Assembly (NCBI RefSeq): GCF_041248615.1 | Contig: NZ_CP158426.1 | Origin: Escherichia coli | GTDB lineage: Bacteria; Pseudomonadota; Gammaproteobacteria; Enterobacterales; Enterobacteriaceae | Strand: one strand, 5' to 3' | DNA length: 64,000 nucleotides | Shown here: positions 1 to 7,360 of the stretch, piece after piece | How the letters are laid out: each line of letters begins with the position of its first letter | How positions within the stretch are numbered: the stretch's first letter is position 1 | Translations under genes and position numbers: made by a program | Notes under the pieces: generated by a model | Database searches by the model: none | What the model was told of the DNA's origin: nothing | What the model saw: only the letters and a program-made list of their open reading frames with translations

Positions 1-93
1 GCAGCAAATGCTTTTTTCATTGTGAAAAATTTCCATCTATAAGCCACCTCAATGTGGCGTCAATGAGTGTAGCACTGACTTTTGTTTCGTCCA

Positions 94-116
94 CAAAAAA
101 GCCCGCAGCGCGGGCT
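94..116 (-). terminator. Intrinsic terminator immediately after the 179-aa ORF stop
   Basis: GC stem agcccgc/gcgggct (100-116) with plus-strand A6 run at 94-99 (T-run on minus strand); overlaps stop codon 116-118. Confidence 0.55.
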
Positions 117-655
117 TACCAAAACTTGTACCACGGGGATTTATCCTTCAATGGACAATCCTTCCATCGTGTGGCCAACCATTCATATTCTTTAAAATAT
201 GTGTTTATGTTTTCTTTTTCTCTAATGGCTTGTATAAGAGGTAGCGCAATCTGATAGTTATTTACAACGGAGCTGTAAAATACTTCCTTAATCATGGTCT
301 CATCATAAGTTTTCCGCTTCACGCTCACAGCCATGCGTTCGTAGAAACCTAGACAGTAAATTATTTCTCTCTTCTCTGTCTTTTCTTCATCCGTAAGATC
401 AGCCTGCCCATTGCTTGGATACATATAAGAGCGGAATGATTTGTTCGATTCGTGAATGCGGCGCATAGTAGATAGGCCTTTCTTATAATCTACATCAAAC
501 CTGCTTTCACCAAGGAATACTGAAGTGTGTACTTTTCTCGCTGTATTTACATTATAAATAATAGTAGCGATAGCTATGAACAAGCCAAGCGAAACCGCGA
601 CTGCACTTACGATTTGAGCCACAGCCATGGCAAATTGCATTTCTTCACTTAACAC
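116..655 (-). CDS. Hypothetical membrane-anchored protein (prophage moron); no family assignable
   Basis: 179-aa ORF from GTG at 655 with GGAGA 7 nt upstream (alternative ATG at 640); single N-terminal hydrophobic helix AMAVAQIVSAVAVSLGLFIAIATIIY then charged soluble domain; AT-rich; own terminator. Confidence 0.55.
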   Translation of the reverse strand: MLSEEMQFAMAVAQIVSAVAVSLGLFIAIATIIYNVNTARKVHTSVFLGESRFDVDYKKGLSTMRRIHESNKSFRSYMYPSNGQADLTDEEKTEKREIIYCLGFYERMAVSVKRKTYDETMIKEVFYSSVVNNYQIALPLIQAIREKENINTYFKEYEWLATRWKDCPLKDKSPWYKFW

Positions 656-676
656 AAACTGTCTCCAGACATGAAA

Positions 677-696
677 ACGGGGCCTAATGGCCCCGT
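677..696 (-). promoter_or_regulatory. Perfect palindromic hairpin in the leader of the 179-aa gene (possible attenuator or stabilising stem)
   Basis: acggggcc-taat-ggccccgt, followed on minus strand by TTTC; preceded by a 10-codon mini-ORF with strong SD. Confidence 0.3.
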
Positions 697-840
697 CATT
701 AAACTATCCGAATGTTAAACGCCTTCGTACTCGTCAAATTTTCTCATGTGGGCTCCTCCTGTATCGGTGCCTAATCGCTATGGATCACCCGTGAGGTAAT
801 AGTAAGCTATTCACCTGCAATCTGTACAGAATTATTTAAA

Positions 841-856
841 GGCACATCCCTGTGCC
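841..856 (-). terminator. Putative terminator downstream of antirepressor gene
   Basis: Hairpin ggcaca-tccc-tgtgcc 10 nt after ant stop, followed on minus strand by TTTAAATAATT. Confidence 0.4.
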
Positions 857-865
857 GCCGCCCCG

Positions 866-1576
866 TCAGAAGAACCCTGCCTTGTCGTTGATGTATTCCG
901 CGTGAGTCTGGATATCACGCAGGCATTTGCTCACACCGACGATGTAGCAAAACATGGTGGTCAGCTCCGCCGCCGCGCCCGATACGTCGTGCCCGTCGTC
1001 CTGTAACTGGTTCAGCAGATTCATCAGCAGTGAGTTCTCCGTCAGGCCGAGAACACCAGACGGAGAATGAATCAGACTGCGGTAGCCGGGCTTCAGTGGG
1101 GCGCTGTAGGTTTTGTTCTCTATCTTCATTGCCTGCATCACTGCTGATGCTGTGGCGTTGGCTACCTGGTCGGCAACCATCTTTATGCGTTCTTCCTGCG
1201 GGAGCGAGTTTTTAATGTAACTTCCGGTGCGGCGGATCTGAGGAAGAACCTCACCTGTAACCCATTTACGAAAGCGGTAGGGGATAGTGCCTGGTGTCAC
1301 CGCATCGCGGCAGCGGAGGATCAGTGTGTAGAGGCCTGACTCGGAGATGATGTTGATCTCTTTTACTCGGCTGTCAAAAATCGCACGATGTTCATGCCCT
1401 ATGTTGAACATAGACCTTTCATCATCATCCAGTTTTTCAAGTGATTGGGTGACGTTTTGGATACGCAGCGCACTACAAACGTCTTGGGCTACAAACCATG
1501 GTTGGCCATCGATAATGATGGAACGGATAGGGTTAACAGATTCAAATTTGAAGATGGCAGTTTGAGCATTAGCCAT
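866..1576 (-). CDS. Phage antirepressor, Bro-N domain family
   Basis: N-terminal FKFESVNPIRSIIIDGQPWFVAQDVCSALRI matches Bro-N/KilA-N-type antirepressor signature; ATG at 1576 with GGAGAT SD (track ORF begins at upstream in-frame GTG 1591). Confidence 0.8.
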   Translation of the reverse strand: MANAQTAIFKFESVNPIRSIIIDGQPWFVAQDVCSALRIQNVTQSLEKLDDDERSMFNIGHEHRAIFDSRVKEINIISESGLYTLILRCRDAVTPGTIPYRFRKWVTGEVLPQIRRTGSYIKNSLPQEERIKMVADQVANATASAVMQAMKIENKTYSAPLKPGYRSLIHSPSGVLGLTENSLLMNLLNQLQDDGHDVSGAAAELTTMFCYIVGVSKCLRDIQTHAEYINDKAGFF

Positions 1577-1731
1577 GGTGGTTATCTCCACTTAGTGATT
1601 TTAATCACCACCGCAACGCCAATTACTGGTGGTGAACTGGACAAGGTTGGCGTACCGGCCTAAGTGGTACCGGCGTCCTTTCGGACCCCTGCCCAGCCCA
1701 CCATAATTCGGATATAGCTGTGCTTAACGCA

Positions 1732-1755
1732 TAAAAAAACCACGTCTGGCGTGGT
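1732..1755 (-). terminator. Putative intrinsic terminator between small paralog gene and ant
   Basis: Stem accacg-tctgg-cgtggt (1739-1755) with plus-strand A7 (T7 on minus strand) at 1733-1739. Confidence 0.45.
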
Positions 1756-1891
1756 ATGCGCCACTTAGTAACTCGGGACGCCAATCCCGGCACTGGATTT
1801 TGCCAGTGCCAGATTACTATGGCACAAGAGGAGTGCGATGTAAATTTACCGCAAAGGTAAATATAAGCACTCCAGTTGGTAATTGCAAACC

Positions 1892-2149
1892 TTATCTGGT
1901 TTGTTTTCGTAATTGTTCGGCACAATAGTCGAGATGTGTTTGCAGATCCCGCATAGACATCTGTGAGCTGGTGACGTAGTTAATCAGTGCAGTCAGTTCG
2001 GCAAGTGGGCCATCGACATTAAATCCATCCTTATCGAGATCCCGGAGTAATTTCATCAAGTGCGATCCCTCCACCAGTGACCTGACGCCTCCCGGCGTGT
2101 GAATCCTTTCGGTAAATCCGTCTTCCAGTGGATAGTGATACTGCTGCAT
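1892..2149 (-). CDS. Small hypothetical protein (86 aa), paralogous to C-terminal domain of the adjacent antirepressor
   Basis: ATG at 2149 with GGAGAAG SD; shared motifs with Ant C-terminus (IH-S/T-P-G-GV, LxExSxLMxLL, DGxxVxG, AELT, RD-I/L-QTH); longest ORF extends to 2272 but lacks RBS. Confidence 0.55.
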   Translation of the reverse strand: MQQYHYPLEDGFTERIHTPGGVRSLVEGSHLMKLLRDLDKDGFNVDGPLAELTALINYVTSSQMSMRDLQTHLDYCAEQLRKQTR

Positions 2150-2344
2150 CTTATCTTCTCCATGCAATAACTGTATATTTATACAGTAGCAAATAATTTG
2201 TTTGCTATCCAGCACGTTTTGCAAATCACCTGAAAGGTAATATCTATTCGTATTTACAGTCTTTCTATCCATATGTGGTTTTTCAGGTAATAGAATAACC
2301 AGATATGCGGCGCAACGGGTGCTGCGACTATCTGGAGATTTAAC

Positions 2345-4927
2345 ATGACGGTCTCAACCGAAGTTGACCACAACGAATACACCGGTAACGGAGTTACGAC
2401 ATCGTTTCCGTATACTTTCCGCATTTTCAAAAAATCCGACCTGGTTGTTCAGGTGTCTGACCTGAACGGGAACGTAACAGAATTGGTTCTGGATACCGGT
2501 TATACAGTAACTGGAGCTGGCACTTATAGTGGCGGTTCTGTGGTTCTTCCGTCTCCGCTTGCTACTGGATGGAGAATTACGATAGATCGTGTGCTTGATG
2601 TAGTACAGGAGACAGATCTTCGCAATCAGGGAAAGTTTTTTCCCGAAGTGCATGAAGATGCCTTTGACTACCTGACGATGCTGATCCAGCAATGTTTTGG
2701 GTGGTTCAGACGTGCATTGATGAAACCATCTTTGCTTGCAAAATATTACGATGCAAAGCAAAACAGAATTTCTAACCTTGCAGATCCATCACTTGAGCAG
2801 GACGCTGTAAATAATCGCTCAATGCGTAATTATGTCGATGCTGCAATCGCCGGAGTTGTTGGTGGTTTTGGTTGGTTTATTCAGTATGGTTCTGGGGCAG
2901 TATACAGAACGTTCCAGGATAAGATGCGTGACGTTTATAATGTTAAAGATTATGGGGCGAAAGGTGACAATATTAACGATGATACGCTAGCATTTATTGC
3001 AGCAGCAAATGCTCTCGGAGAGGGCGGAAAGTTATATATTCCAACAGGAACATACAATTTAACTGGTCCAGTTAATATACCACCAGTGAATATGTGCGGC
3101 GATGGGCAGGGTGAAACAGTTATTGTGTTTGACAATACCACATCACCAAAAGACGGCTTTGTTTTCGCTGCGCCAACTAAATATGATATTGAATTTGGTT
3201 TAAGTCACCTTACAGTTAAAAGAAAAGGCGGGAATGGAGCTAATGCTATATATACCCCAAGAGGTGTCGGGCTTAACCATCTAAGACCAAAACCAACATT
3301 TAGATTTTTATCTTTCTGTTCTGAAACTGCAAATATTGATTCTGATGAATTCGCTCAGAAATACGGCTGGGAATGGTCTTTTAACTGTGGTGATAGTTGG
3401 CAGTTCACAATCGAACGCATTGATGCTGTTGGATGTTATCAGATAGCCAAAAGTTATAATGAACAGTTCCTTGATGGATTCATTCGCACCGCTCCAGAAG
3501 AGGGGATTTTATCAATGCGTGTGAGTGATATCACAACGCATAATGTTGCAAATTTTTTTGAAATTAAGCAGAAGACATATTTTACATTGCTTAATATTGA
3601 TGCCGCCAAGGCATTACGAGGCATTTACGACGCTGATGATCGTATATTTGAAACGAATCGTTATGCTTATGGTGAATGTATATGCACAAATGTTGGTATT
3701 AATGCCCAACTTGAACCAGTACGGCTGGATAACAGATTCCTGCTCATCATGAATGGTATGTTTATTCACCGCGCAGCAAAAGGTTACGATCATGGTCTGG
3801 AATGGGTTGGTCTTAAGCTTAGTCGTGCTCGCGTGTGTTCATTCCAGGGAATTGAGATCGGCACTGCCAGAGGGTATTCAGGGACTAAGAAAGGGATTGT
3901 TCTTGACGCCGGTGATGCAAATAACTTTACCAATGTAACTTTTGGTTTGCTTGATGTGTGCGCACAGATTGGCGATTCCAATTCACAGTATGGTGCCAAC
4001 TTTGCAACATGCTTTAATAATGTGAGCATTAATGCTGACACCGTATTGTTATTCGATTTGCAGCTATGCAGAAATTTCCATTGTGATGGATACGGAGCAT
4101 CTTCTGCCTACACTCTTCAGCAATTCCATAGGAACAGTGATGACACAAGCAATACTTATACATTTAGTAATGTAGGTAAACACAATCTCTACACTGACAA
4201 CTCGCTGTACCTACATAATTCTGCTTCGCTGGAGAACGGGAAGAATATACGTATTGATACACGAAACGGATTATCTGTTAGCACTCAAGCAGATACTGGT
4301 TCCGCAGGAAATAACTTCCTTATAATTCGTAGGACTGGTGTTGATATAGACAGTTTTGAGTTAAGGACTCGCAGTACAGCAGGTGCATATACATATATTA
4401 ATACACCTGAAACTCATTTTTCTGGCCTTATAAAACCAACTGTTGATAATGTTAACTCAAACGGAACATCAGCATTTCGATGGTCACAGGTATACGCTGG
4501 TACTGGCAGTATCAACACGTCGAATGAAGAGCTGAAATTGCGTATTGAGGCTGACGAGAAAACAACAGAATCAGAGCGTCTTGCTGCGCTTGAAATAAAG
4601 GAAAATATCTGGAGGTTTAAATTTAAAGATGCAGTAAAGATCAAGAGTGATGGCGCTCGGATTCATTTCGGTGTTGGTGCACAAACTGTAGGTAATATTC
4701 TCAGAAAATACGGTCTTGACCCTAATAACTATGCGTTCTGGTGTTATGATGAATGGGATGATATTTATGCTCCAGAAGTATTGATTAGGAGTGTTAAAAA
4801 CAATGAAACAGGAGAGTGGTACGACGAGGAATATTACACAGGAAGGCAGATTATTATTAAACCTGCTGGCTATCAGTATGGTATCAGATACGAGGAACTT
4901 CTGATGTTTATTCTTATGTTTATTTAA
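2345..4927 (+). CDS. Phage tailspike: conserved N-terminal particle-binding domain, right-handed beta-helix (pectate-lyase-like) depolymerase domain, C-terminal peptidase-S74-type intramolecular chaperone domain
   Basis: 860 aa; ATG 2345 with GGAGA SD; N-terminus TGNGVTTSFPYTFRIFKKSDLVV typical of podoviral tailspike anchors; VKDYGAKGDNINDDTLAFIAAANA beta-helix entry motif; C-terminal S726-NEELK ... EIKENIWRF chaperone-like region. Confidence 0.85.
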   Translation: MTVSTEVDHNEYTGNGVTTSFPYTFRIFKKSDLVVQVSDLNGNVTELVLDTGYTVTGAGTYSGGSVVLPSPLATGWRITIDRVLDVVQETDLRNQGKFFPEVHEDAFDYLTMLIQQCFGWFRRALMKPSLLAKYYDAKQNRISNLADPSLEQDAVNNRSMRNYVDAAIAGVVGGFGWFIQYGSGAVYRTFQDKMRDVYNVKDYGAKGDNINDDTLAFIAAANALGEGGKLYIPTGTYNLTGPVNIPPVNMCGDGQGETVIVFDNTTSPKDGFVFAAPTKYDIEFGLSHLTVKRKGGNGANAIYTPRGVGLNHLRPKPTFRFLSFCSETANIDSDEFAQKYGWEWSFNCGDSWQFTIERIDAVGCYQIAKSYNEQFLDGFIRTAPEEGILSMRVSDITTHNVANFFEIKQKTYFTLLNIDAAKALRGIYDADDRIFETNRYAYGECICTNVGINAQLEPVRLDNRFLLIMNGMFIHRAAKGYDHGLEWVGLKLSRARVCSFQGIEIGTARGYSGTKKGIVLDAGDANNFTNVTFGLLDVCAQIGDSNSQYGANFATCFNNVSINADTVLLFDLQLCRNFHCDGYGASSAYTLQQFHRNSDDTSNTYTFSNVGKHNLYTDNSLYLHNSASLENGKNIRIDTRNGLSVSTQADTGSAGNNFLIIRRTGVDIDSFELRTRSTAGAYTYINTPETHFSGLIKPTVDNVNSNGTSAFRWSQVYAGTGSINTSNEELKLRIEADEKTTESERLAALEIKENIWRFKFKDAVKIKSDGARIHFGVGAQTVGNILRKYGLDPNNYAFWCYDEWDDIYAPEVLIRSVKNNETGEWYDEEYYTGRQIIIKPAGYQYGIRYEELLMFILMFI

Positions 4928-4930
4928 AAT

Positions 4931-4950
4931 ATAGCGCAGGGATGCGCTAT
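4931..4950 (+). terminator. Putative terminator after tailspike gene
   Basis: Hairpin atagcgca-ggga-tgcgctat 4 nt after stop; T-rich tail is weak. Confidence 0.4.
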
Positions 4951-5343
4951 TCAACTATTTTATAAAATTAATAACTATTCATGCGATATAATGTGGCCTC
5001 TTTTATCTTTGCAGAATTAAAAACTATAGAAAATATTTTGTATTATTATAAATGCTTCTGGATCATATTAATCAGTTTGCCATCTATTAGAACTTTGATT
5101 ATTGATGCATCAATTATTTAACATAGTGGTTGTGCGCAACTCCACTAACGATTGAATATAGATTGTTATTTTTGTTTACACTGTCACACAAGAACATCCT
5201 TACCTGTCAATCAACATTATTATTTTTTGATTCCATGATGTTGATTTGTGATGTAAAAAAATACATATTAAACCATATATGGATTGTAATTCGTGGTTAC
5301 AATTCTTGTTGTTTTTTTATGGTGAGATAAAAAAGGTGTTTTA

Positions 5344-5745
5344 ATGTCATTTCAATTAACAGGAGAGTCAATAAATCAATGGCTTAGCCTTGGTTCTCTA
5401 GCAGCGGTGATAGCAGGAGTGCCTCCAGAAGTAGCTCTTGGGTCTTTGTCAGGAGCGGTAATTTTTGTTACCTCTGCTGTAGAGTATCCTGTTCGTCGTC
5501 GTGTACTCTTGTCGATACTCAGCTTTCTTTGTGGTCTTCTCTTTTACAAACCAACTGCATCAATTCTTATAGGCATAGCCAGTCTAATTCCTACCATTAC
5601 TCAGGACTCTTTCGAGAAAGGGATTGTTTTCTCTGCTGGCGCATTTGTGTCAGCAATAGTCGCAGTGCGAATTGGCATCTGGCTCTATCACCATTCCGAT
5701 AATCCACGCGAGTTAATTCCTGGGAGAAAAGACGATGGTAACTAA
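5344..5745 (+). CDS. Holin-like membrane protein (3-4 predicted TM helices)
   Basis: 133 aa, several hydrophobic helices, charged C-terminus; first gene of lysis cassette upstream of endolysin. Confidence 0.5.
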   Translation: MSFQLTGESINQWLSLGSLAAVIAGVPPEVALGSLSGAVIFVTSAVEYPVRRRVLLSILSFLCGLLFYKPTASILIGIASLIPTITQDSFEKGIVFSAGAFVSAIVAVRIGIWLYHHSDNPRELIPGRKDDGN

Positions 5746-6043
5746 TGAGCTTGTTTTGCTTATCACCAATGCAGTTATTTGTACTGGCATAGCAATTCGC
5801 GTTGTCACATTCCGGCGTAACGGCTCTCAACACCGAAGGTTGGGAGGCTGGCTTGCTTATTTCCTGATTGTTGCTGCAGCTAGTATTCCTGTTCGTGTCG
5901 TCTATGCAATCTGGTTACGTACGCCAATGGCTGTGGATTTATCTGAGGTCATTATCAACGCTGTCATGCTTGCAGCGGTTATTAAAACGCGCGGTAACGT
6001 CGTGCAGATTTTTAAAATAACGAGGTCTAAACATGGAGATTAA
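5735..6043 (+). CDS. Holin/antiholin-like membrane protein
   Basis: 102 aa, three hydrophobic segments and basic C-terminal tail [19 protein letters not shown]; GGGAGA SD; overlaps the previous and next genes. Confidence 0.5.
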
Positions 6044-6662
6044 ACAATTCCAGCGAGCTGCTGGTATTAGCGAGGCGCTGGCCGCACGCTGGTTCTCGCA
6101 TATAACTTCTGCGATGAAAGAGTTTGGTATCAGCAAAACCGAAGATCAGGCAATGTTTATTGCTCAGGTCGGGCATGAGTCTGGTGGTTTCACCAGGTTG
6201 CAGGAGAATTTCAACTACAGTGTCAGCGGTCTAGCTAACTTCGTTCGGGCTGGGCGTCTCACTCAGGGGCAGGCTAATGCACTTGGTCGCCGTGCTGGTG
6301 AACCACCATTGCCACTTGAGCGCCAGCGCGCGATCGCAAATCTGGTATACAGCAAACGCATGGGTAACAATGCTCCCGGCGATGGCTGGAATTACCGTGG
6401 GCGCGGGCTTATCCAGATTACCGGTTTGAATAACTATCGTGACTGCGGAAACGGCCTAAAAGTGGACCTGCTGGAGAATCCTGAGCTGTTGACGCAGGGC
6501 GAATACGCGGCTCGTAGCGCGGCGTGGTTCTTCTCCAGCAAAGGCTGCATGAAGTATACCGGCGATATTGCACGTGTAACTTTGATTATCAATGGTGGCA
6601 GGAACGGCATCGACGACCGGAGAGCGCGGTACATCACTGCCAGTAAGGTGCTGGCGGTATGA
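6033..6662 (+). CDS. Endolysin, glycoside hydrolase family 19 (chitinase-like lysozyme)
   Basis: 209 aa; motifs [10 protein letters not shown] and [16 protein letters not shown] resemble GH19 phage endolysins; lies between holin-like genes and Rz. Confidence 0.75.
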
Positions 6663-7141
6663 TCTGGGCATTCGTAAAAGCATACTGGAAACAGTTGCTT
6701 ATCGTGGCGGTGCTTGCTGTTCTGGTCATATCAGGAGTTGTTGCCTGGAATGTACACGGTAGCCGTCAGTACGACGCCGGGTATGCACAGGCGAAGGAAG
6801 ACCGCAAAGCTGAAGATGAGAGAGTTCGTCAGCACTACGAACAGGAGAAAGCGACCAATGAACGTGAAGCTCAGCAGAGGATCGACCAGGCGCGCAATGA
6901 TGCTCTTGATGCTGCCGCTCGCGCTGGCCGGTTGCAGCAACAACTCTTTGCCATCCGTGAGCAGCTCAGGCAGTATAACGCCATTGTCGGCGCTGGGACA
7001 TCAGCCGCAGACACCGGAGTTTTGCTTGCCGACGTGCTCAGCAAATCTCTCGAGAGAAACAGACAACTGGCAGAGTATGCTGACCGGGCAGCCGAAGCCG
7101 GAAGAGTCTGCGAAAAACAGTACGACACTCTGACCAGATAG
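6659..7141 (+). CDS. Rz-like inner-membrane spanin (i-spanin)
   Basis: 160 aa; N-terminal TM helix then Gln/Arg/Ala-rich predicted coiled coil; start ATG overlaps endolysin stop (ATGA). Confidence 0.7.
6858..7133 (+). CDS. Rz1-like outer-membrane lipoprotein spanin (o-spanin), embedded in +1 frame of Rz
   Basis: ATG 6858 with AGGAGAAAG SD; lipoprotein signal [26 protein letters not shown] (lipobox LAGC); fully contained within Rz. Confidence 0.6.
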   Translation: MNVKLSRGSTRRAMMLLMLPLALAGCSNNSLPSVSSSGSITPLSALGHQPQTPEFCLPTCSANLSRETDNWQSMLTGQPKPEESAKNSTTL

Positions 7142-7251
7142 CATGGCATTTTTCATGGTACTGATTTCCGGTGACGGTATATAAAACGGTACTAGAAAAA
7201 TGAAGTTTTGGAAAAATGTTATCACTCAATTTGTTATGATTGTCGTAAATA

Positions 7252-7266
7252 ATTGAGTGGGAATGA
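7252..7266 (+). other. guaA: Candidate attR core / terminal codons of guaA (IEWE-stop)
   Basis: att gag tgg gaa tga reads I-E-W-E-stop, which I recall as the GuaA C-terminus; upstream frame is broken by stops, so only the last codons are host-like here. Confidence 0.4.
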
Positions 7267-7296
7267 TTTTGATCCCTGCACTATGAATGAACAAAA

Positions 7297-7322
7297 CCCT
7301 CTGTTACTACAGAGGGTTTTTT
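7297..7322. terminator. Bidirectional intrinsic terminator between prophage end/guaA remnant and yfgI
   Basis: ccctctgt-tact-acagaggg stem with A4 upstream and T6 downstream. Confidence 0.6.
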
Positions 7323-7360
7323 ATCTTCAAGAATTATAGGCTTGAAGTTACTTACATCGA

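Follow-up and report, generated by a model that had tools for sequence, protein, structure and literature searches.

The closest described relatives of the element analysed here are the phages ZX5, phiV10 and epsilon15, for which attgagtgggaatgatt has been reported both as the attP core and as the attB sequence at the 3' end of guaA (PMC9782041). The attB, attL and attR sites of ZX5 were confirmed by PCR and Sanger sequencing, and its integrase shows 98% homology to the integrases of phiV10 and epsilon15 (PMC9782041). GIsul2 integrates at the same guaA site, with a published core of GAGTGGGA (PMC9376610).

The stretch of DNA under study (64 kb in length, hereafter the window) is 100% identical to the genome of E. 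coli NRZ14408 (NZ_LT599825.1), window position x corresponding to record position x + 1,472,000. It almost certainly contains, at 7252-7268, the attR core that forms the right junction of a phiV10/epsilon15-type Uetakevirus prophage at E. coli guaA. Core, target gene and integrase type are all published, so the current understanding of these phages is unchanged. For the annotation of this genome it is useful that the right prophage boundary is fixed at 7251/7252-7268, that an orphan IEWE-stop sequence is explained and that guaA is found to be undisrupted in the strain. The features discussed are collected in Table 1.

Table 1. Features at and around the right prophage junction (window coordinates).
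Feature	Position	Strand	Sequence and basis
Rz-like spanin (DUF2514), last prophage gene	6659..7141	+	Pfam DUF2514, E = 2e-44; genome and phage annotations agree
P arm of attP kept at attR	7142..7251	+	From the Rz-like spanin stop to the core; aligns with attP of phiV10, ZX5, epsilon15 and other relatives
Two direct arm-type Int sites, predicted	7171..7192	+	GTGACGGTAT at 7171-7180; ACGGTAC at 7186-7192
Left arm of inverted repeat	7223..7231	+	CACTCAATT; TCAAT invariant in the family
IHF-like site in the P arm	7224..7236	+	ACTCAAtttgTTA against consensus WATCAANNNNTTR, 1 mismatch; phiV10 2193-2205
Core-type Int site C, presumed	7244..7254	+	CGTAAATAATT, on the phage side; inverted partner of AATGATTxAC across the spacer
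Second IHF-consensus match, candidate	7246..7258	-	ACTCAATTATTTA, 1 mismatch; phiV10 2215-2227
attR common core	7252..7268	+	ATTGAGTGGGAATGATT; identical in attL, attP and attB; 17 invariant alignment columns
Strand-exchange (overlap) region, presumed	7255..7262	+	GAGTGGG(A); inferred
Core-type Int site at attR, presumed	7262..7272	+	AATGATTTTGA; mirror position to C
Native guaA rho-independent terminator	7293..7320	+	12-pair stem followed by a T run (terminator scan)
yfgI, first host gene right of the prophage	7361..7900	-	RefSeq; source and empty-site genomes

The prophage-host junction at the end of guaA

The sequence at 7252-7266 (attgagtgggaatga) reads ATT GAG TGG GAA TGA and would encode IEWE followed by a stop. 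Translation of the same frame further upstream gives ...LL*LS*IIEWE*, with the nearest stop (7246-7248) only two codons ahead, and the initial annotation was right that just the last few codons, four in number, are host-like. Megablast comparison of 6900-7700 with complete E. coli genomes gave matches in 5,416 of 5,426, which mostly begin at query base 353 (7252) and lie under the guaA end and yfgI. When 1-7400 was compared with phage genomes by the same method, HEMP4, vB_EcoP_ZX5, phiv142-3, TL-2011b, phiV10 and epsilon15 were matched, and in every case the match stops at 7268-7269; identity of 1-7268 to HEMP4, ZX5, phiV10 and epsilon15 is 81-95% over the shared parts. Host-like and phage-like sequence thus overlap by 17 bp, and as the host match starts at 7252 and the phage match runs to 7268, the core is 17 bp long. 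The attR core proposed earlier as overlapping the guaA stop is thereby borne out by the junction mapping, as it is by the alignment of the att sites and by the published core, with its extent corrected from 15 bases to 17. This 17-mer occurs once in the window, where the sole other match has 3 mismatches.

A second copy lies 39,592 bp upstream, outside the window (L001 5661-5677; record 1439660-1439676). It is the attL core: it forms the end of an intact guaA and is adjoined by a tyrosine integrase gene. GuaA is annotated at full length (525 aa, RefSeq) and ends in ...GKPPATIEWE* at attL, as it does at empty sites, in agreement with the initial annotation, which gives IEWE as the end of GuaA. 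The comparison with the native guaA 3' end and with the opposite prophage junction that had been suggested there accordingly yields an identical 17-mer at both ends, and fixes the duplicated core. At attR, IEWE-stop represents the final four codons and the stop of guaA in a displaced, non-coding copy; the guaA stop in use is the one at attL, so that the earlier description of a guaA stop at this position holds for the sequence and not for its function.

The core-to-core distance is typical of Uetakevirus genome length, and the DNA between the cores is a Uetakevirus genome with int beside attL and the lysis cassette beside attR. According to the genome annotation, the order at the left end is xseA, guaB, guaA, tyrosine integrase, DUF1382, methylase, PerC, AlpA-like HTH and RecT, followed by replication genes, terminase, portal, capsid, tailspike, two holins, endolysin and DUF2514/Rz; the host genes after the prophage are yfgI, yfgH, yfgG and pdeF. 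A promoter scan of 7000-7500 found none.

Several features of the prophage itself were also observed. Its tailspike (window 2345-5340) is a protein of 860 aa related to glycosyl hydrolase family 28 (GH28). No O-acetyltransferase gene is annotated between tailspike and holins, the place at which phiV10 has oac. Over 1-5300 the likeness to phiV10-type phages is patchy, with 44-55% of the query covered. Outside the window, at L001 20854-20930, a tRNA-Arg gene stands between the terminase module and the portal module.

A five-way alignment was made of attR (from the window), attL (from the same genome), the attP sites of phiV10 and epsilon15 and the empty attB of C600. The 17 core bases are invariant in it, and the flanks swap partners as predicted for a reciprocal crossover: attR consists of phage P arm, core and host B', and attL of host guaA, core and phage P'. 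The same picture is obtained with ECOD1, a closer relative with an empty site. Ten Uetakevirus phages also have the 17-mer in attP, and it is found at unoccupied guaA-yfgI sites. Seen from the window, where only a 15-base guaA-like fragment lies by phage genes, the IEWE-stop could instead be taken for a truncated or rearranged guaA remnant, or for the target-site duplication of a transposing element, with no att site involved. This reading has next to no probability, given the intact guaA with the same 17 bases 39.6 kb upstream beside int and the empty sites that are collinear across the core. A truncated remnant was rejected on these two grounds, and a transposon- or Mu-type target-site duplication was ruled out by free phage genomes, which already carry the 17-mer between Rz and int.

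The native guaA terminator is now parted from its gene by the prophage; the same sequence is found 3' of guaA at empty sites. A close homologue of this terminator (AACCCTCTGTT..CAGAGGGTTTTT) is found in the phage P' arm and is conserved in attP and attL, and therefore guaA keeps a terminator in the lysogen. The stem of the P'-arm terminator (AACCCTCTG/CAGAGGGTT; L001 5722-5745, phiV10 L003 2282-2305) is identical to that of the native one, and phage-host homology therefore runs, discontinuously, about 70 bp past the 17-bp core. In the lysogen the guaA-type terminator occurs twice, at a distance of 39.6 kb.

Integrase, predicted arm-type sites and the crossover region

The integrase of the prophage (416 aa) possesses the Pfam domains Arm-DNA-bind_3 (E = 4e-20), Phage_int_M (E = 3e-12) and Phage_integrase (E = 1e-19). 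An AlpA-family protein of 82 aa is also encoded in the prophage (L001 8365-8613), and is a plausible excision factor.

Putative arm-type sites were recognised from the motif ACGGTAY, of which 5 kb of phiV10 hold seven copies against 0.72 expected. These are clustered: the P and P' arms have two each, and the other three lie within int, at its 5' end (2600, 2690 and 2940). The P arm in the window likewise has two, at 7174-7180 and 7186-7192. Conservation was assessed in ten attP regions from complete genomes of phages of Escherichia, Salmonella, Klebsiella and Enterobacter. An integrase search of viral contigs returned 80 prophage fragments, 99-100% identical, which were not used for conservation because most of them start at int and lack attP. 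The stretch CGGTATATAAAACGGTA, which holds both P-arm copies, is invariant in the ten attP-family sequences, and in the GenBank record of epsilon15 GTGACGGTAT is marked as a site bound by the integrase.

The bases GTAAATAA, which adjoin the core on its left, are the same in 10/10 Uetakevirus attP sites even though they are not host sequence. The attP sites have inverted arms, (T)GTAAATAATT and AATGATT(T/A)ACA, around a 7-bp GAGTGGG (in epsilon15 the arms are 11 nt long and 91% complementary), which would correspond to the classical C-O-C' layout of a tyrosine-recombinase core. At attR, the presumed core-type site at 7262-7272 takes its first seven bases from the common core and its remaining ones from host B'. 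In a GIsul2-like island of strain APEC E19019, whose integrase is 53% identical to that of the prophage, the two ends share only ATTGAGTGGGA (11 bp). Taken together, the GIsul2 core, the 11-bp identity of the island ends and the inverted arms place strand exchange most likely within GAGTGGG(A), 7255-7262; the cleavage positions themselves are deduced from this arrangement of sequences.

The host B' flank immediately right of the core (7269-7276) is polymorphic, being TTGATCCC here, TTGAACCC in ECOD1 and TGACCC in C600, a difference of a 1-2 bp indel or substitution directly by the crossover region; otherwise this flank agrees with the empty sites of ECOD1 and C600.

The inverted repeat beside the core

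Read in reverse complement, the left arm of the repeat is identical to AATTGAGTG (7251-7259), from which it is separated by 19 nt; the 9-bp inverted repeat of the initial annotation is hence exact, and its stated gap of 20 bp differs trivially. The window contains just 21 perfect inverted repeats whose arms reach 9 bp or more across a spacer of 3-40 nt, and only 1.5% of all 17-bp segments overlap such a repeat. When the P arm was shuffled 20,000 times with its dinucleotides preserved, the core became part of a repeat of 9 bp or longer at a frequency of about 0.001, and the observed repeat is therefore more than chance would give (p about 0.001). In a repeat search it extends to 28-nt arms (7212-7239 and 7243-7270) that are 71% complementary, and folding of the region as single-stranded DNA gives z = -3.9.

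Conservation of the left arm is uneven. TCAAT (7226-7230) and TTA (7234-7236) are invariant in the ten attP sites, and the spacer 7237-7245 and neighbouring bases vary. Position 7225, which would pair with a core G that does not vary, may be C, G or T, and the full 9-bp complement is therefore confined to the E. coli phages and Tyrion. As the invariant bases coincide with the IHF consensus, the left arm is read as an IHF site: to judge by its sequence and position, its probable role is to bend the DNA that links the arm-type sites with the core, and this fits better than a second core or a relic. The mismatch to the consensus falls on the conserved A of WATCAA, and an A-tract (7211-7216) precedes the site. 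Ten of 11 bases of TCAATTTGTTA are identical to TCAATTTGTTG of lambda, a stretch which we take to be the H' site. IHF sites are annotated at both palindrome arms in the GenBank record of epsilon15. The second consensus match, a candidate only, shares bases with C and with the left of the core, and makes up the palindrome's right arm. In 5 kb of phiV10 the consensus is matched six times against 5.2 expected by chance; this count is uninformative, and the clustering of three of the matches at attP is suggestive. The inverted repeat itself would arise because the IHF-like ACTCAAtttgTTA nearly mirrors TAAataATTGAGT at the left core edge. Of the two possibilities raised in the initial annotation, that the repeat is part of the recombination site or a relic of it, the former stands, since the repeat lies in the P arm, and the latter is the less likely, the conserved bases following the IHF consensus across the ten attP sites.

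Other explanations of the left arm were weighed against an IHF site. It might be an extra core-type site, bound by Int, by the AlpA-like excisionase or by another symmetric DNA-binding protein, in which case attP would have near-copies of the core halves, in inverted orientation, some 19 bp away on each side of the core. The repeat is exact and rare, as such a model would have it, and there is a mirror counterpart in the P' arm (TGAGTGGGAATGATT / AATCATTCCTATTCA, 15 nt, 87% complementary, 18 nt apart; 18 nt and 83% complementary in epsilon15) as well as a further direct copy, TCATTYCTATTCA, 63 bp downstream. In RNAalifold predictions for 9/9 phages the core moreover falls where two neighbouring hairpins meet, and a palindrome, too, accounts for the conserved TTA/TAA. 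An extra core site is nevertheless unlikely: the variation at 7225 restricts the full complement as described above, the invariant bases fall on IHF consensus positions, and no covariation is seen (RNAalifold for nine attP regions, 1/70 compensatory pairs, covariation term +1.44). In known tyrosine-recombinase systems the core sites lie around an overlap of 6-8 bp and not a spacer of 19 bp, and for this reason the 9-bp repeat was also rejected as a C/C' pair. That the repeat is a functionless by-product, namely a chance TCAAT near ATTGA in an AT-rich P arm or the relic of an old duplication, would fit with the lack of conservation in its outer three pairs, with core-side pairing partners that are mostly fixed by the guaA coding sequence, and with a degenerate IHF consensus that is matched at chance frequency over 5 kb. 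The shuffle probability argues against it, as does the invariance of TCAAT and TTA in attP sites from phages of four host genera while the spacer between arm and core varies, and this explanation is judged quite improbable.

In attL (L001 5663-5710) and in epsilon15 (L002 2232-2285), nearly the whole core is found inverted 18 nt downstream in the P' arm. The mismatches of this P' palindrome are all G·T on the + strand (G·U in RNA), and a transcript of guaA or the int upstream region could therefore form a 15-18 bp hairpin over the guaA stop. It is unlikely, though conceivable, that the location of the core exactly where two conserved imperfect palindromes meet represents an undescribed layer of the site, consisting of accessory core-like Int sites or of an RNA hairpin. 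The former would build an intasome of different geometry, and the latter would regulate the guaA transcript of the lysogen and/or transcripts into int. The RNA model was dropped following RNAalifold analysis of the nine attP regions, in which the predicted hairpins include the repeat and show essentially no covariation; covariation is, however, uninformative at this site because guaA fixes the core.

Proposed recombination and comparison with known systems

The prophage almost certainly entered by site-specific recombination into the last 15 bases of guaA and the 2 beyond. Because attP carries the same 17 bases, recombination of attP with attB by the phage tyrosine integrase rebuilds guaA at attL, where the P' arm supplies the terminator homologue, leaving the non-coding IEWE-stop copy at attR. 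The predicted order at attR is P arm (7142-7251) with arm-type sites (7171-7192) and IHF-like site (7224-7236), then core and host B'. Bending of the P arm by IHF could allow arm-bound Int to reach the core, as in lambda. Excision would take place between attL and attR and would require Int and the AlpA-like protein; the excised attP is expected to have the order P arm - ATTGAGTGGGAATGATT - AACAGCTAACTC. The prophage of NRZ14408 is presumed to be competent for excision.

The end of guaA is a landing site shared by Uetakevirus prophages and GIsul2-type islands with resistance or defence cargo. Prophages of the phiV10/epsilon15 type occupy it in about 360 of the 5,426 complete E. coli genomes. 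GIsul2 islands use the same attB as the prophage, with a core lying inside the 17-mer (PMC9376610). The right junction of the GIsul2-like island of APEC E19019 has the same 17 bases as the prophage, whereas its left junction shares only the 11 bp given above. Members of the GIsul2 family differ in being mobilisable islands of 12-15 kb (rep, trb and cargo) rather than phages, and in having different arms. The APEC E19019 island (NZ_CP126937.1 1456450-1468600, L097; 12 kb) encodes int, an HTH protein, repA, trbJ/trbL/traC and a cargo of a SIR2-family and an ATP-binding protein, which may be a defence module. In strain ST130 (NZ_CP043478.1, L093) a different element, with fragments of IS3 and IS5 and genes of hypothetical proteins, borders on yfgI, and the same 17-bp core marks the junction (locus position approximately 3020); its element-side flank, TTTCATTTATC, is unlike that of the prophage.

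The site resembles that of lambda in that an integrase with an N-terminal arm-binding domain is accompanied by direct arm-type repeats in both arms, and in that inverted core-type arms surround a 7-bp spacer, lambda having Int, IHF and Xis and a C-O-C' core with a 7-bp overlap; the binding sites of the prophage in this comparison are predicted and not footprinted. The likeness extends to the IHF-like site through its match to TCAATTTGTTG, with IHF binding in the prophage deduced from the letters of the site. It differs from lambda in its integrase, which is unrelated in sequence class (P4-type with Arm-DNA-bind_3), in the direction of int, which is transcribed away from attP and not towards it, and in its target, the 3' end of a protein-coding gene that is rebuilt together with its terminator.

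The agreement is closest with phiV10, epsilon15 and ZX5. Their attP and attB core is identical to that of the prophage and occupies the same place between the Rz-like spanin gene and int, and genome size (39.6 kb) and gene order agree as well. The P arm differs from that of phiV10 by about six bases in the alignment (for example, TTTGTT in the prophage and TTGGTT in phiV10), with the arm-type repeats the same. The prophage is thus distinguished from these three phages only by strain-level differences, in the tailspike, in oac and in a few substitutions of the P arm.
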